A program made the position numbers and the translations under genes. DNA of 64,000 bases from a virus: positions 1-64,000 of IMG/VR virus record IMGVR_UViG_3300036861_000507. The stretch is one strand, 5' to 3'. The notes beneath the pieces are model-generated. The model ran no database searches. It saw nothing but the letters and a program-made list of their open reading frames with translations, and was not told the origin of the DNA. Below, in pieces: positions 2,863 to 31,574 of this stretch (position 1 is its first letter; each line of letters starts with the position of its first letter).

Positions 2863-5800
2863 CTACCGCTCGGAAGTGACGACCGTTGGGACCATCGCCA
2901 GGATGGTTGCCGGCCGTGGCGATTTCCCACGCAGGACGATCCTGGAGTCCGGGCCCCACTGGTTCGGTATGGCCACCGCCGTCATGTCCAGCGCTCCCAG
3001 GATTTGATCGGGGTCGATGGTGGCGCCCTCGATCACGCGCGGAAGTGGATCGACGGTGCCCGTGTCGTCACCGTAGAAAACCCCGTTATTGTGAGTCTGG
3101 TAAAGGGCGAGCGCCAGCTGCGGTGTGCGCTTCTGCTGCGCCAGCGCCGTTCCCATCTCCGCGCCATAGGCCAGCTTCGCGCTCTTCCATGTCGGCTGGC
3201 GGAACGGCAGGCCGGCCACGGCATGGTGCACGCCGTCCGTCAGGCCCGTTAGCTGGACGTCCCCGCCCGTGTCGACGGTGTAGCGCGTCTGGACACCACT
3301 GACGTCCGGCGACAGGTCGACGTGTGGAGTGGAGCCCGTATCGAGGCTGCCCCATGCCACGACGGATTCGCCGATGAGATGCGGCGCCACCGCGTTGAGC
3401 AGCGTGGTGCGCCCCGTATCCGTGTATGACGCCGCACAATCCATCAGCCACGTGAGGCCACTATCGCCAACGCACTCAGATTGCGTCGCCCACTTCTCCA
3501 GGTAGCGCTTGGTCGCTCCGTTGATGGTGCGCCGGACGTGGTAGTAGACGGCGTCCTCGTCCTCTCCGGGCAGCACCATGGCCCGCTCGACCGCCGGATT
3601 GGTGCCGGTGTCCGAGACCCATGTGGTCCAGCACACCACTTCCTCTTTCGGCTCGTAGGTGAGAATGGCGACCGTGCCGTCGCCGAGCACCACATGCAGC
3701 CGTGTATCCGGCTGCCGCTGCACCGCCACCGAGACGATGCCGGCCGCCAGCAGGTCGGGCACCAGCAAGGTCAGGTCGGAGGATTCGTAATCCCCGAAGG
3801 CCGACTGCGTCGGCCCGATCAGGTGCACGCGCTTGTTGGAGCGCTGCACATGCAGCGCCTTGTCGTCGAGCGGCAGGGCGCGCAGGTTGCCGGAGCCCTG
3901 GGTGGAGAACGTCCGCGCCGCACTGTTGTCGGGCGTGACTGGCTCGTCGAGCGAGGAGGAGGTCAGCGCCAGTTCCGCACCGGCCGTGCCGATGATGAGG
4001 CGCAGCTTGGAGATCAGGAAGCGGATGGCGTCGACGGGGCCCGAGCCCAAGGTGCGGATGATGGGCCCGGCGTCGCCCTCGGCGGTGTCGTCGAAGTTCT
4101 CGTAGTCATCGGACACGGACAGGAACAGGCTACCGCCCTGGGCATGGGCCAGCCGTCCCCCGTGCAGGGCAATCGCGGTCGGGAAGCCCCGCGCGTCCGA
4201 CCAGTAGCCCTGCTGCCAGTTGTTGGTGGCGGCGCTGGTGCCGGTGTCGGAGAAGCGGCTGAGCACCTCGATGTCGACGCTGGTATTGGAATTGTAGCCG
4301 GTGATGCGCGCCACGCCGGTGACGCCGCCGCCGAGGTAGGTGATCGTGACCACTGCGACACCCGACGAATAACCCGTCAGCACGGCCCGGTACCAGACCG
4401 CGATGTTGCTATCCTTGTCGTCGATGGTTTCGGTGAACGTCCCGGTATCGGTGAAGCCGAGCGCGGGGCGGAAGCCGAGGTCGGGGCCATCGAACGACTT
4501 CTGGATTTCGATGTTGCCCGCCCATACTCCCGACCCGGAAACGACGATGCGGCGCTCGTTGGTGGTGTTGGGCGTCCCGGTGTCGCTCAGGCCAGTGACC
4601 TTGACGACCTCCGTGGCCGCCAGGAATGCACCGAGCCGCCATACCCCGGTCTGGCCATTGGTGAAGATGCGCAACAGCGCTCCCACGTGCCCCGCCCTGA
4701 AGAACGGGACCGTAGATCGCAGCGTCGTGTTGCCAAACCGCTGGTTGACATAGAGCGTCGCCGATGAGGAGGCAGACGACAGGAACGGGCCGTTGTCGGG
4801 AGCGTAGTCGACCACCGACCAGGACCGCCCGGTGCCCCGGCGCTCGATCTTGGAGGGCCGGACCCCGTCGCAGTCGACATAGACCACGTCGGCCGATTGA
4901 TCGTAGCGGACGTTGTCGAGGTCGTTGCGGTCCCAGGGTGCCGTGATCTCCACCGTTCCCGAATCGCCAATGGCGATCGACTGCACGATGCGGTCGATGA
5001 TGGCGTCGGTCTGAAGCGTGATGTGGAAGTTGCCGGTCGGGGTGAAGGCGAGGTTGTGGTAGCCGGTGCCGAGCGCGGCTTCCGAGATGTAATCATCATC
5101 CCCCGCAGTCGAGCCCACGCGCAGGATGACGGGGCCGCGCGAGACCGCGAGCGCGAGCGAATGCTCCGTGCCGGTGTCGCTGACGATCACGCGCTTGGTG
5201 GCCTTGGCCAAAGCGCCGATCGAGGACGCATTGAGCGTCATGATGCCGTTGGAGCGCTTCACCTGCTGCGCCACGTCGGCCGTGAACATCTCGATCTCGG
5301 CGACGATCAGCTCGGTGTCGCCGTCGACGGCCGTGAAATTGAGCCGCCAATAGCGGAAGGCTTCTATCGTGCCGGTATCGGCATCGGGCCGTGTGAAGCT
5401 GCGCTTCTCGCTGAGGGCCCATGCAGTCTGCGCCGAGCGGGAATCGACCGTGGTCCAGCCGGCACCCGTATCGACGTCGTTGTACTGCAGGGTCCAGGCG
5501 GTGGGCGCATTGTTGAGGTGCCCCGCAATAGAGCCTGCCCGCACCGAATAGGAACGGATCGCCTTGGTGTTGCCGGCCCCGAAGTTGACCTTCCACCAGG
5601 ATGGCAAGCGGCTGCCGCCGGCCCCGGTGTCCTGCCAGTTGGTGCCGACATTGTCGTCGGCGGCCTGATAGGCGGCCGCGCCACTGATCGTTGCGTCGGG
5701 ATCGGTCTCGCCACCGCCAGCGGCGCCAACGGTATTCTCCGAGGACGCCGATACGGTCACACCGTTGGTCGTCGCCGACGTCATCTGCGGAATCTGGTCG

Positions 5801-6192
5801 ACGGCCGCGGTGGCAAAGGCCCCGCCCGTGCTGGCGTTCGCCCAGCCGGTGTCGGAGACGCTGACGGTGGTGTCGACCTTCGGCCGTGAGAGCAGCGCCA
5901 GGGCATGCGCATCCGCACCCAGCCAGATGCGCATCTTCTGATGCGTCAGCTCGGGCAGTGCGACGTCGTCGGTGGAGGCGACGAACTCCAGGAATTCCGC
6001 TCCGGTATCGTTGAGCGAGGAGCCGAAGAACTTCGTGCCCGGCCGGATCGACATCGAACCTTGGGTCGCCGGCATCCAATTTTCGTAGCTTTCCGCCGAT
6101 AGCCGCGTGCGCTCCACGTCCACGCGCGCGAGCGCCTTGGGGGAGATGAGCCCGCGGTTAAACGACAAAAATGGAGGGTTGGTTCTCGCCAA
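2863..6192 (-). CDS. Tail tubular protein B (nozzle) with an inserted discoidin/F5-8C-like domain; 14 DTG and 2 DSG motifs
   Basis: N-terminal SFNRGLISP...R.D...ENW....G...RPGT, YDQSADVVY and GFP.AI.LHGGRL motifs of podoviral nozzle proteins; TTG start. Confidence 0.85.
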   Translation of the reverse strand: MARTNPPFLSFNRGLISPKALARVDVERTRLSAESYENWMPATQGSMSIRPGTKFFGSSLNDTGAEFLEFVASTDDVALPELTHQKMRIWLGADAHALALLSRPKVDTTVSVSDTGWANASTGGAFATAAVDQIPQMTSATTNGVTVSASSENTVGAAGGGETDPDATISGAAAYQAADDNVGTNWQDTGAGGSRLPSWWKVNFGAGNTKAIRSYSVRAGSIAGHLNNAPTAWTLQYNDVDTGAGWTTVDSRSAQTAWALSEKRSFTRPDADTGTIEAFRYWRLNFTAVDGDTELIVAEIEMFTADVAQQVKRSNGIMTLNASSIGALAKATKRVIVSDTGTEHSLALAVSRGPVILRVGSTAGDDDYISEAALGTGYHNLAFTPTGNFHITLQTDAIIDRIVQSIAIGDSGTVEITAPWDRNDLDNVRYDQSADVVYVDCDGVRPSKIERRGTGRSWSVVDYAPDNGPFLSSASSSATLYVNQRFGNTTLRSTVPFFRAGHVGALLRIFTNGQTGVWRLGAFLAATEVVKVTGLSDTGTPNTTNERRIVVSGSGVWAGNIEIQKSFDGPDLGFRPALGFTDTGTFTETIDDKDSNIAVWYRAVLTGYSSGVAVVTITYLGGGVTGVARITGYNSNTSVDIEVLSRFSDTGTSAATNNWQQGYWSDARGFPTAIALHGGRLAHAQGGSLFLSVSDDYENFDDTAEGDAGPIIRTLGSGPVDAIRFLISKLRLIIGTAGAELALTSSSLDEPVTPDNSAARTFSTQGSGNLRALPLDDKALHVQRSNKRVHLIGPTQSAFGDYESSDLTLLVPDLLAAGIVSVAVQRQPDTRLHVVLGDGTVAILTYEPKEEVVCWTTWVSDTGTNPAVERAMVLPGEDEDAVYYHVRRTINGATKRYLEKWATQSECVGDSGLTWLMDCAASYTDTGRTTLLNAVAPHLIGESVVAWGSLDTGSTPHVDLSPDVSGVQTRYTVDTGGDVQLTGLTDGVHHAVAGLPFRQPTWKSAKLAYGAEMGTALAQQKRTPQLALALYQTHNNGVFYGDDTGTVDPLPRVIEGATIDPDQILGALDMTAVAIPNQWGPDSRIVLRGKSPRPATILAMVPTVVTSER

Positions 6193-6198
6193 GGCTGG

Positions 6199-6843
6199 CT
6201 ATCCTATGAGGTTGCCGCGCGATCCGCGGTCGCGATTGCCGCCCGTTCCGCCCCAGCGCGCCCGAGTCCAGGACGATGGCGGCGGGAATTTCGGCTGCGG
6301 CTGATCCATCGCGTCGTAATTGAGCGCAGTGCGCCGCGCCTTGTCGCGATCCTTGGCGATGCGCTCCTTCAGCGACTCCTTCTGGGTCAGGCGCATGCAC
6401 ACGCGGTCCGCTAGGTGCAATTCCACGAAGCGCGAGAAGTGCGCCGTCCAGCGCTGCAGGTCGAGCCCGAGCCCCGTGTCGTTCGACACGTAGCGCACGT
6501 AGATCGGGGTGTTGTCGGCCGACCAGAAGTTGTCGTCGTCGTAGTAGTGCAGCAGGGGATAGGCGAAGTACTCGTCCTGCGAGACGCCGATGGTCCTGAC
6601 CCAATCCGACGGCTTGGCGAACACCTTGGGGAATCCGAACTCCGGCGTCACCCCGGTGTCGGCATCGGCCTTGATGGTCTCCATGGCGAAGTTCCAGGAG
6701 CCGGAGGCGATGGCCTCCGCCACCACCTGGTCGTAGACCGCCACGATCTCGCGCCCGGCCTCGACCGCCTCTCCCGTGTCGGAGAGGCGCCGATGCCCGA
6801 GCTCGCCGAGACAGTTGTTAAAAACAGCTAGCTTGGTTGTCAC
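6199..6843 (-). CDS. Tail tubular protein A (adaptor); 3 DTG motifs
   Basis: N.CL.ELG...WNFA...F..P.DW.R motifs; directly upstream of the nozzle gene. Confidence 0.85.
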   Translation of the reverse strand: MTTKLAVFNNCLGELGHRRLSDTGEAVEAGREIVAVYDQVVAEAIASGSWNFAMETIKADADTGVTPEFGFPKVFAKPSDWVRTIGVSQDEYFAYPLLHYYDDDNFWSADNTPIYVRYVSNDTGLGLDLQRWTAHFSRFVELHLADRVCMRLTQKESLKERIAKDRDKARRTALNYDAMDQPQPKFPPPSSWTRARWGGTGGNRDRGSRGNLIG

Positions 6844-6844
6844 G

Positions 6845-7348: not shown

Positions 7349-7381
7349 GAGATGTGGTGTCCTTCAGTGGTTGGGACGAAC

Positions 7382-7411
7382 AAAAGGGGCCGGCACCGAA
7401 GCGCCGACCCC
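7382..7411 (-). terminator. Rho-independent terminator after MCP and decoration genes
   Basis: Minus strand GGGGTCGGCGC-TTCG-GTGCCGGCCCC followed by TTTT. Confidence 0.8.
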
Positions 7412-7431
7412 GAGATTGTGACGAAGCGGGA

Positions 7432-7707
7432 TCAACCCGTATCGCCGATGAGCGTGCCGGGACCGGTGGTGCCCTGCGTCGCGCCAGTGTCCTGCACCGG
7501 AGCAAACGCAGCGGACCTGATGATCCTGGTCGTGCCAGCCAGTCCACCGGCGAGAATCAGGTCGCCGCTGTCCACACCCATATCGCCGGCATCAGCGAAG
7601 AACCCGGCAACATCCAGAACCGTCCCGGTGTCGGTATAGCTCCAGATCTTGCCGCCGGTGATGCCCTGCGAGATGAGCTTCAGCTTATCCTTGGAATAGG
7701 TAGCCAT
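7432..7707 (-). CDS. Probable capsid decoration/minor head protein; 3 DTG and 1 DSG, ends in DTG
   Basis: Small gene right after MCP and before the terminator; SD GGAGG. Confidence 0.7.
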   Translation of the reverse strand: MATYSKDKLKLISQGITGGKIWSYTDTGTVLDVAGFFADAGDMGVDSGDLILAGGLAGTTRIIRSAAFAPVQDTGATQGTTGPGTLIGDTG

Positions 7708-7721: not shown

Positions 7722-8816
7722 TTAGATCGCCGACGCGTCATGCAGGAACTGCACGATGCCCGACTGTTGCAGGAGCTTGGCGCCGGTGAACGAGGAGGCA
7801 CGCGCGAACGAATAGTCCTGCTCGTCGTCGTAGCCGATCTTGGTGTCGAGACCCTCTCCCGAGTCGAACGCGGAACCGACGGCATCGCGATGGTAGAAGT
7901 AGCACTTCTCGCTTGCCGTCCCGACGCCGGTGAGGTTGGGATGGAAGATCCAGTTGAAGCCTGCCCAGCGCATCATGCGCCGTGCCGGCCCCGCGAGGAA
8001 CTTCATCTCGACGTAGTCGATCTTGGTGGCCTCGGGGATTTGCATGATGTAGCCGCGCACCGCAGGGGTGGCGACGGCGAACATCTTGTCCTCCTCCTCG
8101 ACGGGCACCTCGTTCTCGCCGAGCGTCACCATCGCCTTCGCGGCAACTGACAGCGCGAAGGTCGCGGCCGCGCCGAGGTTCGAGGTCGCCGTGTCGAGCT
8201 GCGTGATGACGTCAGCATCGAGACGGCGGTTCAGAACCTTGCGCGTGGTCTCCTGCATCAACCTCTTCTGGTCGCCCTGCGACTGGAAGATGTTGAACCT
8301 CGTCTTTCGCACGAGGTCATGCCTGCTATGTTCGCTTGAGGTCGCTACTCTCAAACCGCGTCGGTATTGACGCTGCTTCGGATTGCTCCGAAGGCCAGAC
8401 CATATCATCACCCCTGTGGGGTGCTGGGCGCTTCGGGCCGCTTGGCCCTACTCCTCGAAAGGATGGTCGTTGCACCTTCCGATGTGGGAATTCCCACATC
8501 GGCTTGGCTCAGGATTGTCCCGATGGGAGGTTCCCTGAGTTCACCCAGTTTGCGACGTGCATTGCTGCACGAAGGAGCCGCATGACTCGACCAGCGTCGC
8601 GGTCGTCTGGGTCATTGAATCGGCGCGAGCCGGGATCAGACCGTTGATACCGCGGGTTACTGCAGCGGCACCGCCACTGCCGGCGACCAGGAACGTCGCC
8701 TGGTTGCCCTTGATCACGGCCTCGGTAACAGTCGTTTGCCGAAGCCACGACATACCCTCTTCAAAGGTCGCCACGATCTGCTGGCGATATTGAATTTGGG
8801 GTGCGCTTTCTGCCAT
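7722..8816 (-). CDS. Major capsid protein, two exons (8816-8585 and 8323-7722), 277 aa after splicing
   Basis: Exon 1 MAESAPQIQYRQQ...TATLVE and exon 2 HDLVRKTRFNIF... are in the same frame; joining them gives ...LVE-W-HDL...; follows the scaffold gene; strong SD. Confidence 0.85.
8324..8584 (-). ncRNA. Group I self-splicing intron (IA-like, no ORF) in the MCP gene
   Basis: P1 GAGU/GCUC with U.G at the 5' splice site; P2 and P9 with GCAA loops; P3 CUGGGUG/CGCCCAG; P4 CUCAGG/CCUGAG; P7 GACCA/UGGUC; P7.1, P7.2, P8; J8/7 AUGAUA; in-frame stop inside. Confidence 0.9.
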
Positions 8817-9004
8817 TGTTGGCATCTCCTAGTTGGTTGAGATGCCGTCGTTCTGGTTGTCCTTTTCCGATGCGTTCACGGGTTGCCCCGCCGCGAGGAC
8901 GAGGGCCGCTTGCGCAGCCAAAGGCGCTTCACGAACGGTGGGTGGAAAATGACTGCCGTCCTGGCGCCGGCGAGCCGGGTTGGCCAGACGTTGGCAGTCT
9001 GGTA

Positions 9005-10682: not shown

Positions 10683-12356
10683 CTACTGCCCCCGCCCGTT
10701 GACCGGCACGGGCTGCTGGGTGGTGCCCTTGACCAACGCCTCGAGCCCCTTGCCCGCCTGCTCGGCCACCTGCCCGCCGGCGGCGATCTCTTCCATGACC
10801 TGCTGGGTCTCAGCCTGCTCCGCCATCTGCGCCCGCTTGGCCGCGACGGCCTCCTTGGGCTTGAACCAGGTGGCCTTCCAGCCGTTGGAGCGCAGGGCGT
10901 CGCGGGTCGCCTCGTGCAAGTCCACGATCTCGGCCAGCGACTGGTCGACCTGCATCGCCGGCATCAGGATGCGGTCGCGGTTGTCGAGGTAGAGCTCGGC
11001 CTCGTTCTGCTCGGCCAATTCGTCGATGGGAGAGCGGAACTTGAACTTCAGATCGCTGCCGGCCAGCGAGTCCGGCATCCGCTCGGCGATGATCCGCTCC
11101 AGGCCGTTGTCGCGCAGCACCTGGAACAGCCCGTCGCAGAGCGGGTGATTGCTCTCCTTCTGGATCGGCTTGGAGATCGGCGAGGCGCTGCGGATGTGCT
11201 CCTGGATGCGGCGGCGCACCTCGGTCGCCGTCATCTTGGCGTTGGTCTCGGGCAGTTGAATCTTGTCGAGGAAGAAGCCAGAGCGGATATCGGCCTTGAT
11301 GGCCGCGGCCAGGTCCACGCCGATGGGAAAGCCGCTGTGCTGCTGGGTGACCGGGCGCAGCACGTCGCCGATCTTGTTGTCGTACTCGATGTCGGCGGTG
11401 GTGATGCCGCCCGGGTAGTAGGCGATGTCGCCGCGGATCGCGTCGCCGATCTGGATCATCGGCGGGTTGACGTACATCTCCCCCGCTTCCCTGAGCGTGC
11501 GCATCATGACCTGCAGGGTGCGCCCGTCGGGGAGCAACACGTCGGTGGCCATCGAGGTGCCGAACACTGAGCCCGCCACCCGCTGCCAGCGCGGGATCAC
11601 GTAGCCCAGATAGTTCTGCCCGACCTCCTCCAGGACGGTCTCGGACTCCTTCTCCACATACAGCGAGGCGAACGGGAACCGCTTGCCGCCCTTGGTCTTG
11701 TAGTCGTAGAGCCGGGTGGGCAGAACTACATGGCGGCACTCGAAGGTCTTCTCGGGGTCCTTCTCGCAGGCGCGTTTGACCTCGGCCGACACGGCGTCGC
11801 CGAACTGGTTCTTGAGCTGGCGGGCGGTGGGGTTCCATTTGCACCACACCGCATCGGTCTTGTGATCGGCGTTGTCGGCCCACACCACATCGCGCAGGTG
11901 CCGGCTGGACGTGAGGAGGGCGTCACGGCTGGTGTTGGTGCCGTACTTGACCACGGCGTTGCCGAAGGCCGCGAAGTCGTGATCGTGCTGGGCCATCGCC
12001 GTCACCAGGTCGGCGACCGGATCGGTCATCGCCCGCCACTGGATTTCGGTGAGGAACTCCAGGAAGGCGCGGTTGTAATCGTCCTTGTCGAGGTCCTCGT
12101 CGTCGACGTGGATGGAGAACCACTTGTCGGGCCTGAGGAACTCGGCCAGCATGTTGCCGAGCTCGCGCCGGGCCATGCTGGGGTAGGAGGAGAACAGGTG
12201 GTCGGAGTATTCCTCGCCCTGGTCCCGCTCGACGGTGAAGCTGGCCATCTTCGGGTAGAAGTTGAGCGCGATCTCCTGCCATAGGGCATCGACGGTGCGC
12301 TTCTTCTCGAAGAGGCCTTCGCCGATGCGGATGACCTCCCTGGCTCGACTGTCCAT
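10683..12356 (-). CDS. Portal (head-to-tail connector)
   Basis: 557 aa; WQEIA..FYP, PRW..V.GS.FG.S and MTATEV motifs of podoviral portals. Confidence 0.92.
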   Translation of the reverse strand: MDSRAREVIRIGEGLFEKKRTVDALWQEIALNFYPKMASFTVERDQGEEYSDHLFSSYPSMARRELGNMLAEFLRPDKWFSIHVDDEDLDKDDYNRAFLEFLTEIQWRAMTDPVADLVTAMAQHDHDFAAFGNAVVKYGTNTSRDALLTSSRHLRDVVWADNADHKTDAVWCKWNPTARQLKNQFGDAVSAEVKRACEKDPEKTFECRHVVLPTRLYDYKTKGGKRFPFASLYVEKESETVLEEVGQNYLGYVIPRWQRVAGSVFGTSMATDVLLPDGRTLQVMMRTLREAGEMYVNPPMIQIGDAIRGDIAYYPGGITTADIEYDNKIGDVLRPVTQQHSGFPIGVDLAAAIKADIRSGFFLDKIQLPETNAKMTATEVRRRIQEHIRSASPISKPIQKESNHPLCDGLFQVLRDNGLERIIAERMPDSLAGSDLKFKFRSPIDELAEQNEAELYLDNRDRILMPAMQVDQSLAEIVDLHEATRDALRSNGWKATWFKPKEAVAAKRAQMAEQAETQQVMEEIAAGGQVAEQAGKGLEALVKGTTQQPVPVNGRGQ

Positions 12357-21599: not shown

Positions 21600-22234
21600 C
21601 AGGCGCGTCGCGCACCAAGTGGTGCCGTGATGGCGCGCTCGACGGGCCATCCCCTGTCAAGTCGCGAGCGCAACGTATCGTAAGGCAGGCCCGTCCGCTC
21701 GCAGACCTCCGACAGCGTCATAACTTGATCCTGGAACGGTACGAGGCGGTTCTTGCGACTATTCCGCGCCTGCTCTTTCTTCGTCGCCCATCGGCAGTTG
21801 CCGGGTTCGTATCCTTTGTTGTTATCGATGCGGTCTAGGCTCAACCCATCGGGTCGATTGCCCATGTCGACAACGAACGCGTCAAACGTCTGCCAACGCT
21901 CGCACACGGTGATGCCGCGCGCACCATAGTCCTGCCATCTCTCGCCGATTTCACGCGTGCACCGCGTCCACATTGACGCCCACGATCTGTAGGTAGGCGT
22001 ACGCTTGTAGCCGGTTGTGTGTCCGTGGGTTCTGAGACGCGCGCTTGCCTTAACGCGAGCCACGCAACCGCAGCTCTTGGAGTTTCCGCTCTTCAGGCTA
22101 GGGTCGGCGATAGGTCTCTCGTTGCCACAATTACAGCGACACAGCCACCGTTTCTGCAGCCTACGTCTCTTGCCAACGAAGATCGGCGGCCCAAGACGAA
22201 TGACTGTAAGCTTTCCGAAGCGCTGCCCTATCAT
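21599..22234 (-). CDS. Free-standing HNH homing endonuclease
   Basis: MIGQRFGKLTV, CRCNCG, YGARGITVCERW, SLDRIDNNKGYEPGNCRWAT. Confidence 0.85.
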   Translation of the reverse strand: MIGQRFGKLTVIRLGPPIFVGKRRRLQKRWLCRCNCGNERPIADPSLKSGNSKSCGCVARVKASARLRTHGHTTGYKRTPTYRSWASMWTRCTREIGERWQDYGARGITVCERWQTFDAFVVDMGNRPDGLSLDRIDNNKGYEPGNCRWATKKEQARNSRKNRLVPFQDQVMTLSEVCERTGLPYDTLRSRLDRGWPVERAITAPLGARRA

Positions 22235-23277: not shown

Positions 23278-23675
23278 GCCGCGGAGACCGCTATATCGCC
23301 GGCATTGAGGAGGCCGGTGGAGTCGTCGGCCCAGATGATGGCGGCGGCATCCCCGTCCATGCCCCTGAGGTCGTAGAGGATGTCGGTGACGTCGGCGGCC
23401 AGGATGCGGTCGCCCGCCTTGTTCTTGGCGTAGCCCTCGGCGTCGATGAAGAAGGGATAGCTCGAGGCGGTGCGTTGGAACTTCTGGCGCGGCATGATCG
23501 GCGGGTCGACGCAACGTTCCGAGGCAACCTGCACAATCGGCGCCACACTGCCGTCCGTCTCCACCTTCAGGGCCAGCAGCTTCTCCTTGATGCGGCCCCA
23601 CTGCTTCTCGGTGGGCGCGGCCTCGATGTTCTCCGAGATGCCTTCGAACCAGTTGAGGAAGTCTCTGAGCGACAT
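23274..23675 (-). CDS. Hypothetical phage protein
   Basis: F..WFEG..E...PT..QW..IKEKL N-terminus; coupled ORF. Confidence 0.6.
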   Translation of the reverse strand: MSLRDFLNWFEGISENIEAAPTEKQWGRIKEKLLALKVETDGSVAPIVQVASERCVDPPIMPRQKFQRTASSYPFFIDAEGYAKNKAGDRILAADVTDILYDLRGMDGDAAAIIWADDSTGLLNAGDIAVSAA

Positions 23676-23678
23676 TGG

Positions 23679-23837
23679 TCAATATCCCTCGGCGATGGTC
23701 TTCTTGCGCTTCTTGGCCATGTCGGCCTTCATGTACTCCTTGGCCACGGCGATGGGCGGCGCCTTCTTCTTGGTCGGCTTGAAGCCATGGGCAATGGCTT
23801 TCATGAAGCGCGCTTGCTTGGCGGATTTCGAAGGCAT
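23679..23837 (-). CDS. Small basic protein (52 aa; not in ORF track)
   Basis: MPSKSAKQARFMKAIAHG...RKKTIAEGY; TGATG coupling to the upstream gene. Confidence 0.7.
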   Translation of the reverse strand: MPSKSAKQARFMKAIAHGFKPTKKKAPPIAVAKEYMKADMAKKRKKTIAEGY

Positions 23838-24646
23838 CAGATGCTCCTGTTCTTCGCAATCAGCATGCAGAACCCCGTCTCCTCGCGGTGCAGGATGTCG
23901 AAGCCGGCACCCGTCAGGATGGCCTCGCAGGCCTCCAACGTGCGCTCACCGTTCCGCTCGGCGCTGGCGCAGACGCTGACGTACGCGGTGATCTTCAATG
24001 TCTCGTGCGCGCCCTCCAGCACCTCGGGCTCCGCCCCTTCCGCATCGCCGCAGATGAGGTGAACGCGGTCGATACCTTTCTCCGCAACCAGAGCGTCGAT
24101 GCGCCGCGCCGGCACCACGCTCTGACGGTCGGAGGCGTTGAACAGCGAGCTGTCGGCGCTCTCCGGCTTCAGATGCAGGATGAGGTTCGCGTCCTCATTC
24201 CAGGCCGCGACCGGAGCGACATCGATGGCCCGGCCTTGCGCATTCGCATCGAGCAGCGGGATCACGTGCGGGTCCGGCTCGATCGCCAGCACCCGCGCCC
24301 CGGCATCGGCCAGCGTGATGGCGACCTCGCCGATGTTGGCGCCGAAGTTGACGATCTGGGCGCCAGCGTGCATCGGGACCAGCTGCTCGTCGGCGTCGTG
24401 GCCGAAGACGTAGCGGGCGGCCACTCTGTTGCACCGCCTGGCAACTCCGTGGCGATAGAACCGGAAGGCCCGCTCTGGCCGGCAGGCGATACGTAGCTTG
24501 CCATCGAAGAGCCAGTGGATGCCGCCCGCATCGGTGGTGGTCCAATACTCCCCGCCGTCACCTGCCTTGTCGAGGTTCTCCCACACCAGGTGGGTCGACC
24601 CATCGGCTGCGGGCTCGGTGCGGTATTGCAGGCGCTCGCCCGCCAT
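23837..24646 (-). CDS. FkbM-family methyltransferase
   Basis: FGANIGE, LAIEPDP, RIDA, DAEGAEPEVLEGA motifs. Confidence 0.85.
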   Translation of the reverse strand: MAGERLQYRTEPAADGSTHLVWENLDKAGDGGEYWTTTDAGGIHWLFDGKLRIACRPERAFRFYRHGVARRCNRVAARYVFGHDADEQLVPMHAGAQIVNFGANIGEVAITLADAGARVLAIEPDPHVIPLLDANAQGRAIDVAPVAAWNEDANLILHLKPESADSSLFNASDRQSVVPARRIDALVAEKGIDRVHLICGDAEGAEPEVLEGAHETLKITAYVSVCASAERNGERTLEACEAILTGAGFDILHREETGFCMLIAKNRSI

Positions 24647-24649
24647 GCC

Positions 24650-25351
24650 TCAGAAGTCCTCCGGCGGCGGCTCCAGCAGCCCGCTCTCGGCCGCGACCTT
24701 GACCTTGATGCCGGCCTTGGTGGCGGCCCAGATCATGTTCTGCGTGCCTTGCCGCTGCTTGCTGTACTCGTCCTTGCCCATCTGCAGGATGCCGTAGAGC
24801 GGCATCTCCGGTGGACCGTCGCCTCCCATGATGCCCTTGGCGACCATCGCCTCGATGTCGAGAATCGCCTTGCCCATGATCAGCGAGATCGAGGATGTCC
24901 AGGTGAATGGGCCGAACCGATCCTTGACGGCTCGCTCGGGGTAGAGCGCCGCGTTGGGGAACAGCAGGTTCCCTTCGCGGGTACAGAGGTTCATCGCGAC
25001 CTGGTCGCGCATCCACAATCGCTTCTGCGTTTTGGCGATCCATTCGAGGTAGGCGTAGCGTCTGCTGCGGTCAAAGATGGGGTTGTGAATTTCGAAAAAT
25101 TCGTCGACCCGCGGCAGCGGCGAACAGAGCGGCTTGCCGTCTTTCCCGATGCTGCCCCTCGCTCCGAATGGACTATTGTCCGGAGAGCAAGCGTAAATCA
25201 AGAAACCGGGATCAGAGAACGGCGCGAGGTGTTTTGTATGTGGGTTTGAGCCGCAGATCGCGATACCCTTCAAGCGGGCCTGCGGCGCGATCGAAGTCTG
25301 AGCCGCTCCCGTCGGCACGTCGGCTGTGGTGTCATCTACCTGATCCAGCAT
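24650..25351 (-). CDS. Rossmann-like protein, possible divergent glycosyltransferase
   Basis: IAICGSNP...APFSDP...IYAC N-terminus, TSSISL.M..A, LYGI; resemblance to Maf/sialyltransferase-like folds is inference only. Confidence 0.4.
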   Translation of the reverse strand: MLDQVDDTTADVPTGAAQTSIAPQARLKGIAICGSNPHTKHLAPFSDPGFLIYACSPDNSPFGARGSIGKDGKPLCSPLPRVDEFFEIHNPIFDRSRRYAYLEWIAKTQKRLWMRDQVAMNLCTREGNLLFPNAALYPERAVKDRFGPFTWTSSISLIMGKAILDIEAMVAKGIMGGDGPPEMPLYGILQMGKDEYSKQRQGTQNMIWAATKAGIKVKVAAESGLLEPPPEDF

Positions 25352-25947
25352 TGTCCCCTCATTCCAGCCAGGCCCATCTCTCTCGACGCCATATTTTGCT
25401 GATCGTTCCGAAACTGACGCCATACTGCGCAGCCAGCAACTTCCGCGGTGATCGTCCCCCGTGCGGCGCGGATCTCACGGATATCCGACTCGGTCAGCTT
25501 CGCCCAAGGGCTGCGTTCCCCACGATTGTCCGTCCCATGGATCACTTTATCGGCAAGGTTTTCTGACGGGGTTTTCCACACGATGTGACTTGGCGTGCAG
25601 CACCCCTCATGCCCCTTGCCACACAAGTGCGCAGCTTGATGTTTGGGGGACGGCGCAGCCCCGTGGATGATTTGACAGACGACCCTATGAACAGGCTGTT
25701 GGCGGCCTTCCCATTTCATTACGCCATAGCCGTTCTGCGTCAGGCGGGCATACGGCCACACGAGGCAATCATCGCCGCCGTACTGAAGAACAACTTGCCG
25801 GAGGTAGCGAATGCGGTCGCCGTTCGGCGCTCGGCCTTTGAGCGGGTCGCCATACAATTTCCAGCGTCGGTAATGGTTGCAGCAAAAGCCGTAACCAAAG
25901 CGCCGCTTGCCGCAGCCGTCGACAGAGCATATGCGTGGGGAAGCCAT
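25336..25947 (-). CDS. HNH endonuclease
   Basis: CSVDGC...GFC..HY.RW..YGDP, VHRVVC..IHG, AAHLCG..H..CC.P.H..W.T..EN..D. Confidence 0.85.
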   Translation of the reverse strand: MASPRICSVDGCGKRRFGYGFCCNHYRRWKLYGDPLKGRAPNGDRIRYLRQVVLQYGGDDCLVWPYARLTQNGYGVMKWEGRQQPVHRVVCQIIHGAAPSPKHQAAHLCGKGHEGCCTPSHIVWKTPSENLADKVIHGTDNRGERSPWAKLTESDIREIRAARGTITAEVAGCAVWRQFRNDQQNMASREMGLAGMRGQCWIR

Positions 25948-26048: not shown

Positions 26049-26903
26049 CTAGAGTCCGGTATCCCTGTTTGCGCTGACGTTGATGTAGTCGGTGTCGAAG
26101 GGGAGCGCGGCCGCATCCGATGCGAACGCGATGACGACCGGCACCAGCGCCGTGGCGGCATTGATCGGCTGACTGATGCGGCCTTCCTTCTTGCCGTTGA
26201 CGTAGAAGTCGGCAAACAGCTGGCCGCTGTCGCTGTCGAGCGCCACCTCCAGGGTGTCGTAGACGTTGGCGGTCGGGGACGACGTGAGGGTCGCAGTCTG
26301 ATCGCCGGAGTCGCCGGCCACTGATCGGGCAGCAATGCCACGCCACACCGTGGTGCCGGAGTTGCCGCCGTAGACGAAACCGATGCCGTCGGCCATGTTG
26401 GTGATGATGCCGCCTCCGGTGTCATACGCGGGCATTTCGGCCCCGCCGCTGTCGGAGAACCCGACAAACAGCTCGGAGCCCGCCAAGGTGCCGATCTTGA
26501 CGCGGGCGGCAAAGCGCAGGTTGCCTTGGTTGGCCTTCCACTGCTTCTGCAGGCCCTGGGTGAATCCGATCGCGGCCACCGGGGTCAGCACCGCATCGGC
26601 AGATGTGGTGATCCTGAGCACGCCGCCCACGCCCGTGACCTTGACGACCGAGCCGATGCCGGCGACGCCCGTGTCGCCGTTGACGCTGGTCCAGTCGAAG
26701 GCGCCGGTGTCGCCCAGGAAGTCGTCGAACAGGGCGATCGTGTCGTGGGATCCCGGCATGACGATGCGCGACTTGCCCTCGCCGCCGGTGCCGAAGGCGT
26801 TGCGCGAGACCAGCGTGTTGTTGGGGGCGATGTAGGCCTTGGGGCCCCACAGGGACTTCTGCTTGGTGAACGGATCGGTCTTGTCCTTGGTGTAGTCGGT
26901 CAT
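26049..26903 (-). CDS. Beta-sandwich (lectin/ConA-like) putative virion protein; 4 DTG and 3 DSG
   Basis: FDDF.G, LRFAARVK, FYVNG pattern; T/G/A/D-rich composition. Confidence 0.6.
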   Translation of the reverse strand: MTDYTKDKTDPFTKQKSLWGPKAYIAPNNTLVSRNAFGTGGEGKSRIVMPGSHDTIALFDDFLGDTGAFDWTSVNGDTGVAGIGSVVKVTGVGGVLRITTSADAVLTPVAAIGFTQGLQKQWKANQGNLRFAARVKIGTLAGSELFVGFSDSGGAEMPAYDTGGGIITNMADGIGFVYGGNSGTTVWRGIAARSVAGDSGDQTATLTSSPTANVYDTLEVALDSDSGQLFADFYVNGKKEGRISQPINAATALVPVVIAFASDAAALPFDTDYINVSANRDTGL

Positions 26904-26907: not shown

Positions 26908-27561
26908 TCAGTCCTTTCCTTTGTCCTTATCCTTATTGAGGAACACGCCTACCGTCGGCCCGTAAGAGCCGAACTCTCTTTCGTGCTCAGGCCCGCACGG
27001 GCCGCTCGCCTCGATGACTTTCGCGTCCATCCAGGCCGACCGCGCCACGAGCCCTGGATGATCGGAGAACTTCGCATTGGGGAAGGCGGCGACGGCTGCG
27101 GCCCGGTGCGGGGAGGGCCCGCCGTGATCGAGCTTCCTCATGTCGTGGATGAAGCCCACCAGGACGTGGGGGAACTGATCGAAGCAGTGCCTGACGATGC
27201 GAACCGCGCCGGCGCCTTTGGGGCCGTCGCAGAGAATGGCGGTGCGCCTGGGTGCGACGAGCAGTGCCAGGCGCGGCACCTCGAAGGTGCCGTTGCCGCG
27301 ATGTAGCGTGACGTTGGCGAGGCCCGCGCAACGCTGGCGGCCGAACTCCGCATCCACGTCCGCGCGCATCTCGATGGAGTGGATTTCCACGTCCGGCAGG
27401 TACTTGGAGAGCAGGGCGGTGGACTGCCCCCGCGCCCGCCCCGACTCGATGACCACCTCGATCCCCAACCTGCGTGCGGTGTGGATGATGAGGACCATCT
27501 CGGAGTGGATGATGCCGCGCCGCTCGTAGGGCTCGGCGGCGATGGCATCCAGGTCCATCAT
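26908..27561 (-). CDS. SAM-dependent methyltransferase-like protein
   Basis: VVIESGRARGQST, IHSIE, LCDGPK, FIHD motifs. Confidence 0.7.
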   Translation of the reverse strand: MMDLDAIAAEPYERRGIIHSEMVLIIHTARRLGIEVVIESGRARGQSTALLSKYLPDVEIHSIEMRADVDAEFGRQRCAGLANVTLHRGNGTFEVPRLALLVAPRRTAILCDGPKGAGAVRIVRHCFDQFPHVLVGFIHDMRKLDHGGPSPHRAAAVAAFPNAKFSDHPGLVARSAWMDAKVIEASGPCGPEHEREFGSYGPTVGVFLNKDKDKGKD

Positions 27562-28085
27562 TGCAGAGCCGCCTTGTCGGGCGCCGGCGCCGATGTGAAC
27601 CGCACCTCCTCCGCCAGGCCCCAGCCCTCGCCCTCCATGATGGCGGCCATCTGCGCCAGCGTGGCGAACGGGATCGGGTTGGCGTCGAGCTTCAGCGCAT
27701 CCTCGGACAGCAGGACGAGGTCGACCTCGTGCTTCTCGTCCATGAACATCTGGTTGATGCGGGTGAATTCGGTGATCTGCTCGGTGAAGGTGTCGACGCG
27801 CGACTGGTAGTCGGGCTTGTCCTTCTCCACGACCGGTGGCGGCTGGATGTCGGACTTGCCGCCCGACACCTGCACGATCAGCCCGGCCCGCACCTTCTGG
27901 TAGGCATCGCTCACGGCCTGGCACTTGGCGAGGTTCTTGGCGATGGCCAGCCGGGTCATGGGGGCGAAGCTATAGGGCCTCTGCACGGTCGCATGCTTCT
28001 CGCCCTCCTTGACCACCTCCGGGTGGCTGTTGAGCGAGGCGAGCGCGTTGGCGAGGTTGATGATGGTCTGGGTCGAGAGTTTCAT
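27558..28085 (-). CDS. Hypothetical protein (tail-fibre-associated, chaperone-like)
   Basis: Helical ORF, RLAIAKNL motif, SD AGGAG. Confidence 0.5.
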   Translation of the reverse strand: MKLSTQTIINLANALASLNSHPEVVKEGEKHATVQRPYSFAPMTRLAIAKNLAKCQAVSDAYQKVRAGLIVQVSGGKSDIQPPPVVEKDKPDYQSRVDTFTEQITEFTRINQMFMDEKHEVDLVLLSEDALKLDANPIPFATLAQMAAIMEGEGWGLAEEVRFTSAPAPDKAALQ

Positions 28086-28174
28086 GGGGCTCCTGTGGCC
28101 AAGGGCATTTTGGGCTTGCGCTGGGGCGGGTAATTTGCATCCATTCGGGGCGTAGGCGAGGGAGGGTATTGCCA

Positions 28175-29173
28175 ATGTCCGATGCGTTCGTGGTCGCCGC
28201 CGTCATTCCGCTTTACAACGGACATAGGTTCATCTTCGAGGCGATCGCCTCCGTTCTCAATCAGACCCGTATTCCCGACGAAATCATTGTCGTTGATGAC
28301 GGGTCTACCAATCCGCTCGGAGCGCAAATCGTCGAAGCATTCATCCCCAGAGACAAGCGCGTTCGCCTTCTACGCAAACCCAACGGGGGGCAATCCTCGG
28401 CACGCAACTTTGGCGTGGCTCACTTCACCGCCACCCACATCGCCTTCCTGGATCAGGATGACCGCTGGTATCCTGGGCATGTCGAAGCGCTGCTGCGGCC
28501 GTTCAAGAAGAAACGGGACGGTGCGCCGCTTGGGTGGGTCCACAGCAATGTGGACGAGATCGACGAGGGCGGCAATCTCGTCTGCAAATCCATTCTTTCT
28601 GTGCACGGCAAGGATCGCGCGAAACCGCACTTGTTCGATTGCTTGAGCGACGATCTGTTCATCACGCCATCAGCCACGCTGATATCGCGCGCCTCCTTCG
28701 ATGCAGTCGGAGGCTTCGATGAACGCCTCTGCGGCTACGAGGACGACGATTTGTTCCTGAGATTGTTTCGGGCTGGATACGATAGCGCATATCTGAACGC
28801 ATCGCTGTCGCAATGGCGCATTTATGGGTCGTCGACATCGTTCACGCCGCGCATGCGACAATCGCGCGACATCTACGCCAGGAAATTGATGGCCGCTTTC
28901 CCTGACAATCCAGCGCGCAATCTTTACATCACCCGCGACCTGATCGGTCCTCGCTTTGCCCGTTTGAACTATTCCGACCTGCTGCACGGCCTGGCAACAC
29001 ATGACATCGCCAGAGTGGATGGCGCTCTTAGCAGCCTGCGCCCGTTCTCCAAATGGCTGCGACAGAGGCAACGTATCGTGGTGATGTTGGCGTCGATCTT
29101 GCTGCGCGCACGATTGTTGCGACTGCCCTATACGTGGCACATGATTGACGCCTATCGCACGGTGCGCCGCTAG
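28175..29173 (+). CDS. GT2-family glycosyltransferase (moron, opposite strand)
   Basis: VIPLYNG, IIVVDDGS, NGGQSSARNFG, FLDQDD, GGFDE, YEDDDL; lower GC. Confidence 0.92.
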   Translation: MSDAFVVAAVIPLYNGHRFIFEAIASVLNQTRIPDEIIVVDDGSTNPLGAQIVEAFIPRDKRVRLLRKPNGGQSSARNFGVAHFTATHIAFLDQDDRWYPGHVEALLRPFKKKRDGAPLGWVHSNVDEIDEGGNLVCKSILSVHGKDRAKPHLFDCLSDDLFITPSATLISRASFDAVGGFDERLCGYEDDDLFLRLFRAGYDSAYLNASLSQWRIYGSSTSFTPRMRQSRDIYARKLMAAFPDNPARNLYITRDLIGPRFARLNYSDLLHGLATHDIARVDGALSSLRPFSKWLRQRQRIVVMLASILLRARLLRLPYTWHMIDAYRTVRR

Positions 29174-30990
29174 GTCGGGGCCACGGTTCCGCACGGCACG
29201 TAGACAGTCGTGCCGTTAAGGTCGAAGATGAAATACTTACCGAAGTTGGTGGAACTGTCTGCGGCGTTCGAAATCGTCTTGACCCCGGTGCCGATGGTGC
29301 TGACTGCTTGATCGATCCGCAGCGAGTCCGTTTGGAATAGGCCCACATGATCCGTGCCGCCGCCAGCCGCGATGGTCATGCGCGGGGTGTTGCTGGTCTT
29401 GAATACGAACGCTCCGGCGCCTTCCTGGGTGAACGAGAAATCGCCCGTCCCGGTATTGGCAAACGAAGCCGCGCCATTTACCCCGCCAAGTCTCAGAAAG
29501 CGGCATTCGTAATCGGTCGAAGCGACGGCGTGAAAGTCTATGTAGACATTGCCGTCACCTGTGCGGCTACCGCCGAGTTCAATCTTTGCATCCCCGGTCG
29601 ACACGCCCACGCCAGTAGTGATTTGCGGCCCGAAGCTTGGACTCGACGTGGTCTTTACATCTTGGTCGAACCAATCATTGAGAGTCGGATTGCCATTAAG
29701 CGTTACGGTCCTAGCTGCGTCGCCTGTCGTAATTGTCAGATTGCGATCAACCGTCAGATCTGAGCCAGGCACGATGATCAGATCGTGCGAGGCGTTCGTG
29801 TCCAGAAGATGCAGGCCAGTATTTGGCAGCGTCAGCGTGCCACCGGCAAGTGCAAGATCACCGGCCGAATGCGTGAGTGTGATATTGCCGCTGTTGAAAT
29901 TAATCACCGCGCCTGAGGCTAGGAAGACATCAGACCACTTGAGCGATGTACTTCCCAGTGCCCCGATATCGTTCTGAGCTGGTAACAGCGCGCTGTTGAC
30001 AAAGAGGCCGCCCGCGCTGCCCCACATCGTTGTATCAGTCGTTGCGCCACTATTGACCCATCGCACCTCCTGATTACGCGCCAATTCGATTGCCACGCCA
30101 CCGGCGCTGACGCCGACCGACGTGTCGAGATCGTCAAAAACAATGATCCCCTTGCGAAATGTTGCCGTAACAGAAGTGCCGATGATCAGGCCGGCCGAGC
30201 AATTGGCGGTATAGCCGCTGTAGCCCGCCGAAATATTGATGCCGAGGGTGCTGCCGGGCAACACTCCGGAATACGGAGTCAGATCAACGATTGATCCAGC
30301 ATTTGCGACGGTGAATTCGTTCTCGGTAGCGCCGCCAACACCGATATTGCGGATCGCGAGACCGTAAACGCCAACCGCAATGGGGAATACGCCGCTCGTG
30401 TCGTCATTCAAGCCGAAACCGCTGACACCTTGCGATCCTCCAGACGCCGAACCTGCCCACGAGAAGAAATCGCACGTGCGCGCCCCCCCGACCACGCCAA
30501 GCGTCCCGATTGCGCTGACGGCCGACAACTGCGCATTTTGAGTCGATGCTGGGAATGTAGTCTCCAACCAATCTGGGGTCGACATCGGAGCGTCAGAGCT
30601 GCCGAGCGCAGCCGTGCCCACAAACAGTCGATTGAGCCGATGGACCTTGGCTGTTCCAGGGTTTGTAAAGTATGTCGGATTCCAGAACGTAGCTGGACTG
30701 CCGATGACGGCGGAACTATCATTGAGGCGGCCAGCGGCACCAAACGTAACCGAAGCCGGCACCATCAGGTTGTCGCTGTCGTCGATGGTGACGCCGGAGC
30801 CCTGCAGGAGCCCGGTGCTGGCGTCGTAGCGGATGACGGCATTGTCCGTGGTCGCGCTCGGAATGCCGACGCCGACGATCAGGTCGGCGACCGTGATCCG
30901 ACGCGAGTTACCGCTCAGGACCCCGTAGAGGTAGTCCGTGGAGAGGATCGAGACGCCAGGTGGCAGGGACGAGAGGGCCTTGTCGCTCAT
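29170..30990 (-). CDS. Tail fibre/spike (receptor-binding protein)
   Basis: N-terminal anchor KALSSLP...D.LYGV.SGNSRRIT; G/S/T-rich beta-repeat body; lower-GC C-terminal region. Confidence 0.75.
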   Translation of the reverse strand: MSDKALSSLPPGVSILSTDYLYGVLSGNSRRITVADLIVGVGIPSATTDNAVIRYDASTGLLQGSGVTIDDSDNLMVPASVTFGAAGRLNDSSAVIGSPATFWNPTYFTNPGTAKVHRLNRLFVGTAALGSSDAPMSTPDWLETTFPASTQNAQLSAVSAIGTLGVVGGARTCDFFSWAGSASGGSQGVSGFGLNDDTSGVFPIAVGVYGLAIRNIGVGGATENEFTVANAGSIVDLTPYSGVLPGSTLGINISAGYSGYTANCSAGLIIGTSVTATFRKGIIVFDDLDTSVGVSAGGVAIELARNQEVRWVNSGATTDTTMWGSAGGLFVNSALLPAQNDIGALGSTSLKWSDVFLASGAVINFNSGNITLTHSAGDLALAGGTLTLPNTGLHLLDTNASHDLIIVPGSDLTVDRNLTITTGDAARTVTLNGNPTLNDWFDQDVKTTSSPSFGPQITTGVGVSTGDAKIELGGSRTGDGNVYIDFHAVASTDYECRFLRLGGVNGAASFANTGTGDFSFTQEGAGAFVFKTSNTPRMTIAAGGGTDHVGLFQTDSLRIDQAVSTIGTGVKTISNAADSSTNFGKYFIFDLNGTTVYVPCGTVAPT

Positions 30991-31241
30991 ACGACGGGCT
31001 CCGTGACCCGCTTGGTGATGGTCGCGCCGATGGCGGTAACGTCTCCCTCCAATTTCAGGGCATCGGTGCCGATGTCCTGCATGTCACCTTCCAGCAGCAG
31101 CACGCCCTCCTGATCACCCTCCAAGGCCAACAGGAAGGAGATGCGCGAGGTGTTGAAGGCTCCCGTCGGGGCCTCCGACACGCGCACGGTCTTCCCGCCG
31201 GATGCAGCGCCGCTGATCCGCTTGGTGACGGTCGTGGGCAT
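30987..31241 (-). CDS. Small putative virion protein
   Basis: Repeated L.LEGD motif; coupled to the fibre gene. Confidence 0.55.
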   Translation of the reverse strand: MPTTVTKRISGAASGGKTVRVSEAPTGAFNTSRISFLLALEGDQEGVLLLEGDMQDIGTDALKLEGDVTAIGATITKRVTEPVV

Positions 31242-31247
31242 AGGGTG

Positions 31248-31574
31248 CTAGCGGTTCTCGCTGGACCAGACGTAGAGCCGGCCAGCGCCAGTGGCGCCGG
31301 CCTTCGTGACGCGCAGGCGCTCACCGTGGGCATGGACCACGACGCCAGTGTCTGTGGGGTCGAAGGAGGCGCGCAGTTGAGGTGAAAGCCCAGTCGACAC
31401 AATCAGCCAGCCATCGCCCGTATCGCCAGCCCGCGGATAGAGCCCGATCTCGAGCGAGCCGCCGGTGTCGCCGGATATGTTGACCCAGCGCCACTGCTCG
31501 ACCCGACCCGAGAGATTGGGGCCCGTGTCGGTCTGCGTGCCGGTGTCGTTGAGCTCGAAAAGATGGCGCTGCAT
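31248..31574 (-). CDS. Small putative virion protein; 5 DTG in 108 aa
   Basis: Beta-rich ORF with SD; DTG motif shared with the tail proteins. Confidence 0.65.
   Translation of the reverse strand: MQRHLFELNDTGTQTDTGPNLSGRVEQWRWVNISGDTGGSLEIGLYPRAGDTGDGWLIVSTGLSPQLRASFDPTDTGVVVHAHGERLRVTKAGATGAGRLYVWSSENR

Follow-up and report, generated by a model that had tools for sequence, protein, structure and literature searches.

Excess of the D-T-G tripeptide in phage tail proteins

We analysed a stretch of 64,000 nucleotides (in the following, the window) representing positions 1 to 64,000 of the IMG/VR virus record IMGVR_UViG_3300036861_000507, which derives from an uncultured, temperate, podovirus-like soil phage with a GC content of 64%. 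The tripeptide Asp-Thr-Gly (D-T-G or DTG) is about 20-fold too frequent in the tail proteins of this phage and of its whole clade. With a probability of roughly 0.55, DTG and its rarer Ser variant D-S-G (DSG) would serve as a tag which is read in the cytoplasm by an enzyme cassette of the phage itself, leading to O-glycosylation of the tail machine. The tag is found in five proteins of the window, which are encoded as follows (lengths in amino acids, aa):

2863-6192, minus strand: tail nozzle (tail tubular B-like), 1109 aa, matching phrog_376 (3e-122), with 14 DTG and 2 DSG
6199-6843, minus strand: tail adaptor (tail tubular A-like), 214 aa, matching phrog_394 (1.6e-31), with 3 DTG
7432-7707, minus strand: 91-aa protein, encoded downstream of the capsid gene, with 3 DTG and 1 DSG and a C-terminus consisting of DTG
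26049-26903, minus strand: 284-aa ConA/GH16-like jelly-roll protein, assigned from structure rows of a protein atlas, with 4 DTG and 3 DSG and the terminal sequence R-D-T-G-L
31248-31574, minus strand: 108-aa beta-sandwich protein with 5 DTG

A previous reading of the bare sequence (the original prediction) had given DTG and DSG counts and coordinates for these proteins, all of which were reproduced. The five proteins (1806 aa) contain 29 DTG versus 1.56 expected from their composition (Poisson P ~1e-26), and DTG shows the highest enrichment among all 8000 tripeptides. Shuffling the proteins 20,000 times yielded a mean of 1.59 and a maximum of 8 DTG, which confirms the excess over composition that had been claimed. 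The DTG copies of the window are encoded by 13 distinct 9-base spellings. The DNA pattern GAYACNGG matches the minus strand at 34 positions, 29 of them in frame within the five genes, and the plus strand at 5. Because the codons vary and the DNA pattern occurs mostly in frame in the five genes, the motif is indeed one of the protein level, as proposed, and a DNA-level repeat or restriction-type site is ruled out. We also found the predicted absence of DTG from the portal, the scaffold protein, the large terminase (terL) and the 606-aa fibre of the window, to which the small terminase (terS) can be added, as well as the expected single copies in an internal virion protein (3-1904) and an H-NS-like frame (38873-39634). 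The remaining genome (~26,600 aa) contains 2-4 DTG, depending on the gene calls, versus ~6 expected.

The same tripeptide is known from aspartic proteases of the pepsin/retropepsin fold, which contain one or two DTG each in a conserved hydrophobic context. This origin of the D-T/S-G motif was excluded by the up to 14-32 copies per protein and their variable flanks; moreover, the tagged proteins match no protease family, and the 108-aa protein is a beta-sandwich.

Conservation of the tag within the clade

For a clade-wide view, we used a set of five genomes, consisting of this phage and four further clade members, which were taken in full as far as the contigs go. The target proteins, which belong to the same six families throughout, contain 207 DTG versus 8.8 expected and 23 DSG versus 6.8 expected, whereas neither DTA (4 versus 8.4) nor DTS (3 versus 6.1) is enriched. 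The numbers of DTG per protein in these genomes are:

Nozzle: 14-18
Adaptor: 3
91-aa protein: 2-3
284-aa protein: 4-5
108-aa protein: 4-5
Fibre: 10-29

The same pattern is present in the adaptor, the nozzle and the small post-capsid protein of the IMG/VR contigs L001 and L002, whose nozzles are 57-58% identical. Further contigs, which were reached via the 108-aa protein, code for fibre-like proteins with 32 DTG in 680 aa and 10 in 386 aa, located in repeats ~11 residues apart. The core DTG sites are invariant down to ~40% identity. At several of the aligned sites Thr and Ser are swapped; the others are either kept intact or replaced entirely, near-misses being few, and the flanking positions show only a weak bias. 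Because of the scarcity of near-misses, the Thr/Ser swaps and the weakly biased flanks, we regard the tag as an exact tripeptide, D-(T>S)-G.

The capsid protein is untagged in every clade genome, containing no DTG and a single, poorly conserved DSG. DTG is also infrequent in the non-target proteins of the clade, with 1 versus 12.1 expected in a sample of loci. Better gene calls in the five whole genomes gave 12 versus 23.1 overall, of which 5 versus 14.1 are accounted for by late proteins and 7 versus 9.0 by the rest; in other phages, used as baselines, DTG reaches 0.64 and 0.92 of the expected number.

Location of the tag sites

All three DTG sites of the adaptor are invariant within the clade, and site 3 lies inside an insertion of four residues relative to DTG-less homologues; the solved adaptor homologues 8ck1_E and 9efk_T contain other residues at all three sites. 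In tblastn searches, the nozzles of epsilon15-like and Pelagibacter podophages matched aa 415-1108 of the nozzle alone. The N-terminus of the protein is extended and includes a discoidin-like insert (~aa 130-308), and 14 of the 24 site columns across the clade fall into clade-specific insertions, which contain 21% of the residues. The insert at ~aa 130-308 is missing in L001, matches phrog_17517 and itself carries several DTG; its signature SWWKVNFG recalls discoidin-type (F5/8 type C) sugar-binding domains. Orthologues of the 91-aa protein keep DTG26, DSG46 and DTG73.

A search of 1.84 billion representatives revealed a sharply bimodal distribution of DTG in the family of the 284-aa protein. 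About 50 DTG-rich clusters contain 4-10 DTG, with R-D-T-G-x as the ending of nearly all of them, whereas the other clusters contain zero DTG and end with ...NR(A/V). Because DTG-rich and DTG-less members differ in their endings, it looks as if the tag had been appended to the C-terminus.

Metagenomic homologues of the 108-aa protein were found down to ~42% identity. In an alignment of 16 homologues, which extends to ~44% identity, the DTG at positions 10, 36 and 75 are present in all 16 and DTG51 in 14, the remaining two showing DTA and DTS. The AF2 model of the protein (pLDDT 88) represents a seven-strand beta-sandwich, in which the four conserved DTG occupy loops and turns between strands or the ends of these, as the original prediction had expected; the variable fifth lies within a strand. 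A fold search with this model returned generic beta-sandwiches and no specific match in the PDB.

The sixth tagged family is represented by the fibres of related phages, which contain 10-32 DTG at the position occupied in the window by a DTG-less protein next to an opposite-strand glycosyltransferase gene:

29170-30990, minus strand: 606-aa tail fibre or tailspike-like protein without DTG
28169-29173, plus strand: GT2-family glycosyltransferase, the only one to reach Pfam level (Glycos_transf_2, 3e-28; all NCBIfam matches below cut-off)

The region 28169-30990 containing both genes has a low GC content (0.578 versus 0.64), and no homologue of either gene was found in the clade loci. The 606-aa fibre looks like a recent replacement of a DTG-rich one. 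The entire region resembles a receptor-binding module that has been exchanged, with the GT2 gene probably being an accessory glycosyltransferase gene brought in along with the fibre.

The enzyme cassette between terS and terL

The tag is inherited together with a cassette of enzyme genes located in a module between the two terminase genes. Apart from the 108-aa, fibre and 284-aa genes listed above, this module and its borders consist of the following genes, the three glycosyltransferases being designated GT8-like paralogues a to c:

12822-14291, minus strand: large terminase terL (phrog_979, 5.4e-63), downstream border of the module
14758-15327, minus strand: 189-aa protein, core, no significant family match (marginal phrog_498, E 0.007)
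15134-15796, minus strand: P-loop (Walker A) protein, core, with a GPPGxGKS motif and a weak likeness to thymidylate kinase
16718-17446, minus strand: GT8-like glycosyltransferase of the GT-A type, paralogue a (phrog_1962, 1.4e-10)
17877-18572, minus strand: class I S-adenosylmethionine-dependent methyltransferase, core (Pfam Methyltransf_25, Methyltransf_11)
19140-19922, minus strand: GT8-like paralogue b (phrog_1962, 4e-7), with homologues of >40% identity confined to clade loci
20269-21006, minus strand: GT8-like paralogue c (phrog_1962, 1.2e-9), of a type widespread in other podophages (51 loci)
21009-21650, minus strand: short-chain dehydrogenase-like protein (SDR), optional (Pfam adh_short_C2, 3.7e-13), absent from clade genomes G004 and G005
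22231-23859, minus strand: FAD/NAD-binding oxidoreductase, optional (Pfam DAO, 6e-10), absent from G001 and G005
23837-24646, minus strand: FkbM-family methyltransferase, optional (PF05050, 2.3e-11; TIGR01444, 1.6e-21), present only in G000 and G001
24650-25423, minus strand: 257-aa protein, core, no family match, adjoining the 284-aa gene where both are seen
26908-27924, minus strand: 338-aa protein beside the 284-aa gene, with its C-terminal 210 aa conserved in the clade
31983-32630, minus strand: small terminase terS (phrog_309, 6.5e-48), upstream border of the module

Every clade contig of sufficient length shows the same order, starting with terS and continuing with the genes for the 108-aa protein, the fibre, the protein sharing the conserved C-terminal domain of the 338-aa protein, the 284-aa and 257-aa proteins and the enzymes up to terL. 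Two or three GT8-like genes and those for the class I methyltransferase and the P-loop, 189-aa, 257-aa and 108-aa proteins form a core present in 6/6 clade genomes. The FkbM methyltransferase, the FAD oxidoreductase and the SDR are optional among these six, as tailoring enzymes might be. The clade-specific parts of the cassette are paralogue b, the P-loop protein and the uncharacterised proteins. Since its orthologues are ~350 aa long, the true start of the FAD oxidoreductase is probably near aa 190 of its open reading frame (ORF).

The enzyme functions assigned in the original prediction were borne out to different degrees. The SDR and the FAD oxidoreductase gained Pfam matches, and the three glycosyltransferase paralogues with a DxD motif were corroborated by their matches to phrog_1962, a GT8-like fold and the invariance of this motif. 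Two of three suggested methyltransferases were recovered by Pfam and the third was not. The suggested kinase proved to be no more than a P-loop protein with a weak similarity to thymidylate kinase. Its profile found no relative in the PDB, and it is among the best conserved proteins of the cassette (43-76% identity).

The three glycosyltransferase-like paralogues belong to a family of >247 unnamed metagenomic proteins. A model of paralogue a, calculated by AF2 from 38 sequences of the family, reached a pLDDT of 93, and D102 and D104 of the DxD motif are invariant in all 38. Foldseek aligned it with LARGE1, LgtC, glycogenin and the GT6 enzyme BoGT6a (E ~1e-7, probability 1.0), and its best match in BFVD (2.7e-12) was an entry from an uncultured phage named 'Glycosyl transferase, family 8'. 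Two of the glycosyltransferase-like proteins served as sequence queries against the PDB and yielded nothing useful. The resemblance to known retaining GT8/GT6 enzymes (LgtC 1g9r, glycogenin 1zct, LARGE1 7ui7, BoGT6a 4cj8) comprises the fold (TM 0.5-0.6) and the invariant DxD, whereas the sequence identity is only 13-17% and Pfam GT8 is not matched. The substrates of glycogenin and of the GT8 enzymes from bacterial serine-rich adhesin pathways are proteins or glycans attached to proteins. In the BFVD entries A0A6J5PVH5 and A0A6J7XC21 from uncultured phages, a GT8-like domain of this fold is fused to an MptE-like domain, which we take to be that of Maf flagellin glycosyltransferases; these fusions may point to proteins as substrates of the fold family.

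We rejected two further activities for the phage. Because the genome contains no thymidylate-synthase-like hydroxymethylase, DNA glycosylation or other hypermodification via hydroxymethylcytosine or hydroxymethyluracil is disfavoured. Likewise, synthesis of sugar nucleotides by the phage was discarded, as no NTP_transferase or other sugar nucleotidyltransferase is present in the genome.

Relatives without the tag

Burkholderia phage KL4, Microcystis phage Mel-JY33 and Yersinia phage YeP5 possess adaptor and nozzle homologues without any DTG, and those of the loci L021, L037, L041 and L078 lack DTG at the aligned sites. As a control set, we used 80 IMG/VR loci with DTG-less 284-aa homologues and searched for cassette genes within 10 kb. 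Portal homologues are present in 50 and adaptor homologues in 25 of these loci, and their overall DTG content is close to random (109 versus 118.7 expected). Neither a DTG-rich ORF nor a cassette gene was found within 10 kb in any of them (0/80 each). Thus, homologues from phages without the enzyme cassette contain no DTG, and tag and cassette are either jointly present or jointly absent in ~90 related loci. This association is one of co-inheritance and not of repeated co-evolution.

The original prediction had tied the absence of DTG to the absence of glycosyltransferases. This turned out to apply to the cassette as a whole, but not to the glycosyltransferases alone, since distant relatives of the latter accompany DTG-less adaptors. 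L021, L037, L041 and L078 show neither an excess of DTG nor any other outstanding tripeptide. Because distant GT8-like relatives occur in such phages, the enzyme family alone does not predict the tag. In many other podophages, among them these four loci and L039, one or two GT8-like genes are located within the structural block directly upstream of the adaptor gene, sometimes together with an FkbM or class I methyltransferase gene, and again no tripeptide is over-represented. Glycosyltransferases inside podovirus structural modules may be widespread, as 223 matching stretches are present in IMG/VR.

Interpretation of the tag

A reader acting in trans is the best explanation for the occurrence of one exact tripeptide with weakly biased and drifting flanks in six unrelated folds, which include a beta-sandwich, a ConA-like jelly roll, the adaptor, the nozzle and repeat fibres. 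The same conclusion is reached from the placement of the sites in loops, insertions and C-terminal tails, the tolerance of Thr-to-Ser exchanges only, and the existence of functional homologues without the tag elsewhere. The cassette travelling with the tag is most simply understood as a glycan-building set. In the proposed mechanism, D-T-G and less often D-S-G would be the acceptor tag in the adaptor, the nozzle, the fibre and three small proteins, to be read in the cytoplasm by the late-expressed cassette between terS and terL. As the most likely chemistry, one GT8-like retaining glycosyltransferase would O-glycosylate the hydroxyl group of Thr or Ser. The other paralogues would then extend the glycan, and the methyltransferase or methyltransferases would tailor it, as would the SDR and the FAD oxidoreductase where present, using sugar nucleotides supplied by the host. 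The more specific proposal that, in a clade of temperate soil podophages, a D-T/S-G sequon directs GT8-like enzymes to coat the tail, and not the capsid, with a methylated glycan falls slightly short of an even chance. The carbohydrate-binding-type folds among the tagged proteins (the ConA-like 284-aa protein, the 108-aa protein resembling a carbohydrate-binding module and the discoidin-like insert of the nozzle) might dock onto these glycans.

Regarding the targets, the original prediction had envisaged glycans at the virion surface that shield the particle. This can be maintained for tail-associated proteins, but not for the capsid. Since the capsid is untagged, shielding of the whole particle fits poorly and appears doubtful; we speculate that a role at the adsorption apparatus is likelier.

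Several observations weigh against O-glycosylation of the tag. Besides the untagged capsid protein, the window's own fibre is devoid of DTG, and the invariance of many sites exceeds that usual for glycosylation sites and fits a structural role as well. Avoidance of DTG in the other late proteins of the clade, which if real would strongly suggest that the tag is read in the cytoplasm, is no more than a trend. Since tag and cassette mark a single clade, one ancestral event may underlie their association, and GT8-like genes (27-37% identity) occur just upstream of the adaptor gene in the tag-free loci L021, L037, L041 and L078. None of the three paralogues matched a Pfam family at E <=0.01.

Part of these observations would also be accommodated if DTG were a structural or assembly motif of the clade's tail, such as a turn, a metal-binding loop or a docking site, while the cassette did something else. 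We regard this as unlikely. A structural role would account for core sites that are invariant across orthologues, lie in turns between strands and recur regularly every ~11 residues in the fibre repeats, and also for their confinement to proteins that are tail-associated or encoded adjacent to tail genes, with an untagged capsid. However, it is difficult to see why such a role should call for the identical tripeptide, with variable flanks, in six unrelated folds and even for its addition to C-termini, or why the number of fibre sites should vary from 10 to 32 with gains and losses. Moreover, Thr and Ser interchange, yet DTA and DTS are not enriched, and the homologues of the adaptor, the nozzle and the 284-aa protein function without the tag, which is missing from the window's fibre as well.

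The tag may alternatively direct a modification other than glycosylation, i.e. phosphorylation or nucleotidylation by the P-loop protein, or methylation, with the glycosyltransferase-like enzymes acting elsewhere. This would be a rather poor bet, since two or three glycosyltransferase paralogues together with sugar-type tailoring enzymes are most simply regarded as glycan builders, and the P-loop protein weakly resembles nucleotide kinases for small molecules and matches no protein-kinase family. Nevertheless, this protein is a core and highly conserved part of the cassette, and no homologue of it was detected in the 80 control loci or, at the thresholds used, in the distant glycosyltransferase-bearing loci, whereas glycosyltransferase-like homologues exist in phages without the tag. 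The Thr/Ser swaps would suit any hydroxyl chemistry.

Finally, a cassette that modifies host envelope glycans or phage DNA, with the DTG excess being unrelated and due to a host factor or shared descent of motifs, is highly improbable: GT8 enzymes such as LgtC do act on lipo-oligosaccharide, an opposite-strand GT2 gene adjoins the fibre gene and phage P-loop kinases and transferases occur in DNA hypermodification, but the genome contains no homologue of a hydroxymethylase-type thymidylate synthase, the cassette lies on the late-gene strand between terS and terL, interleaved with the genes of tagged proteins and co-present or co-absent with the tag in ~90 loci, and shared descent cannot account for one tripeptide in six unrelated families.

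Genome organisation and possible host

The complete record comprises 93,968 bp. Because of an overlap of ~143 bp between its ends, the genome is circular or circularly permuted; IMG/VR labels it as linear, and CheckV as 100% complete. The late genes on the minus strand follow the order terS, a module of 17.7 kb, terL, portal, scaffold-like protein, capsid gene, 91-aa and 167-aa proteins, adaptor, nozzle, internal virion proteins and a giant protein of 4406 aa spanning the ends of the record. Further features are:

10683-12356, minus strand: portal
33732-35096: integrase
7722-8411 and 8541-8825, minus strand: capsid gene in two ORFs
15798-16658, 21599-22276 and 25336-25947, minus strand: three HNH homing-endonuclease genes inside the enzyme module
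38873-39634, minus strand: H-NS-like frame in the early region, with a C-terminal W-F-G-R-G-R DNA-binding signature
80030-93250 of the genome, minus strand, past the end of the window: giant protein

The giant protein and its clade orthologues of 3947 and 4977 aa contain at most one DTG each, for all their size. The downstream ORF of the capsid gene covers only positions 83-292 of the capsid profile, and the upstream one (94 aa) is 78-84% identical to the N-terminus of uninterrupted 277-aa capsid proteins in related phages; this split would fit a group I intron proposed at 8324-8584. Two of the HNH genes are close paralogues (phrog_374 at 7e-74 and 1e-61). Because HNH genes are missing at these places in most related contigs, they appear to be mobile insertions between the cassette genes.

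We found no cultured relatives in searches with the fibre, the glycosyltransferases and the window DNA. Among species genomes, the sole match was a 4.9-kb contig binned to a metagenome-assembled genome of the Pseudomonadales. Together with the H-NS-like frame, this contig provides the single hint of a proteobacterial host.

Comparison with known glycosylation systems

The closest known system is the glycosylation of mycobacteriophage virions, which is cited in PMC12582341. Freeman et al. (2023, Cell Host Microbe 31:1216) reportedly found that phage-encoded glycosyltransferases modify these virions at capsid and tail-tube subunits, with no strict tripeptide sequon being defined. Both systems share cytoplasmic glycosyltransferases and methyltransferases of the phage that are encoded among or beside structural genes, virion proteins as presumed substrates and C-terminal tails as sites. 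In the phage analysed here, three GT8-like genes lie in the late structural region, on the late strand and flanked by terS and terL, and the homologues in related phages are located beside the adaptor gene. In contrast to the mycobacteriophages, the putative sites are found in a podovirus tail and not in the capsid, and the motif is an exact D-T/S-G. Podoviruses have no tail tube.

Folding and assembly of virion components such as the adaptor, nozzle and fibre take place in the cytoplasm. In the general O-glycosylation system of Bacteroidota, a preassembled glycan is transferred to exported proteins in the periplasm. No oligosaccharyltransferase-like gene turned up in the family searches made of the window proteins. 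The sequon of that system, (D)(S/T)(A/I/L/V/M/T) (PMC8550257), had been cited as a parallel in the original prediction in the form D-(S/T)-X. It is likewise a three-residue motif starting with Asp, with a Ser or Thr acceptor in second position and many unrelated carrier proteins. However, the third residue is Gly here, as evident from DTG (207 versus 8.8 expected) and DTA (4 versus 8.4) in the clade, which makes it a poor analogy. The autotransporter heptosyltransferases TibC and Aah act in the cytoplasm and attach many sugars to Ser or Thr at repeated positions of beta-rich surface adhesins. Their repeat substrates resemble the DTG-rich fibres with 10-32 sites, but the enzymes belong to another family and are not known to use a strict tripeptide.

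Biological significance

We know of no demonstrated phage-encoded virion glycosylation outside the mycobacteriophages, where it operates without a simple sequon, and full-text literature searches revealed no publication describing DTG as a tag of phage proteins. Inherited together with the cassette, D-T/S-G probably represents a novel signal by which sugars are attached to virions. The 108-aa protein, which offers five sites, and a cassette of about seven small genes make this idea amenable to direct tests. If true, it would be the first phage-derived O-glycosylation sequon that is portable and functions in the cytoplasm, where small soluble phage enzymes would read it, and D-T-G could find use as a tag in glyco-engineering. 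It would also mean that phages infecting soil hosts, which are probably Gram-negative, add glycans to their adsorption apparatus, with a bearing on host recognition, stability in soil and the recognition of therapeutic phages by antibodies.

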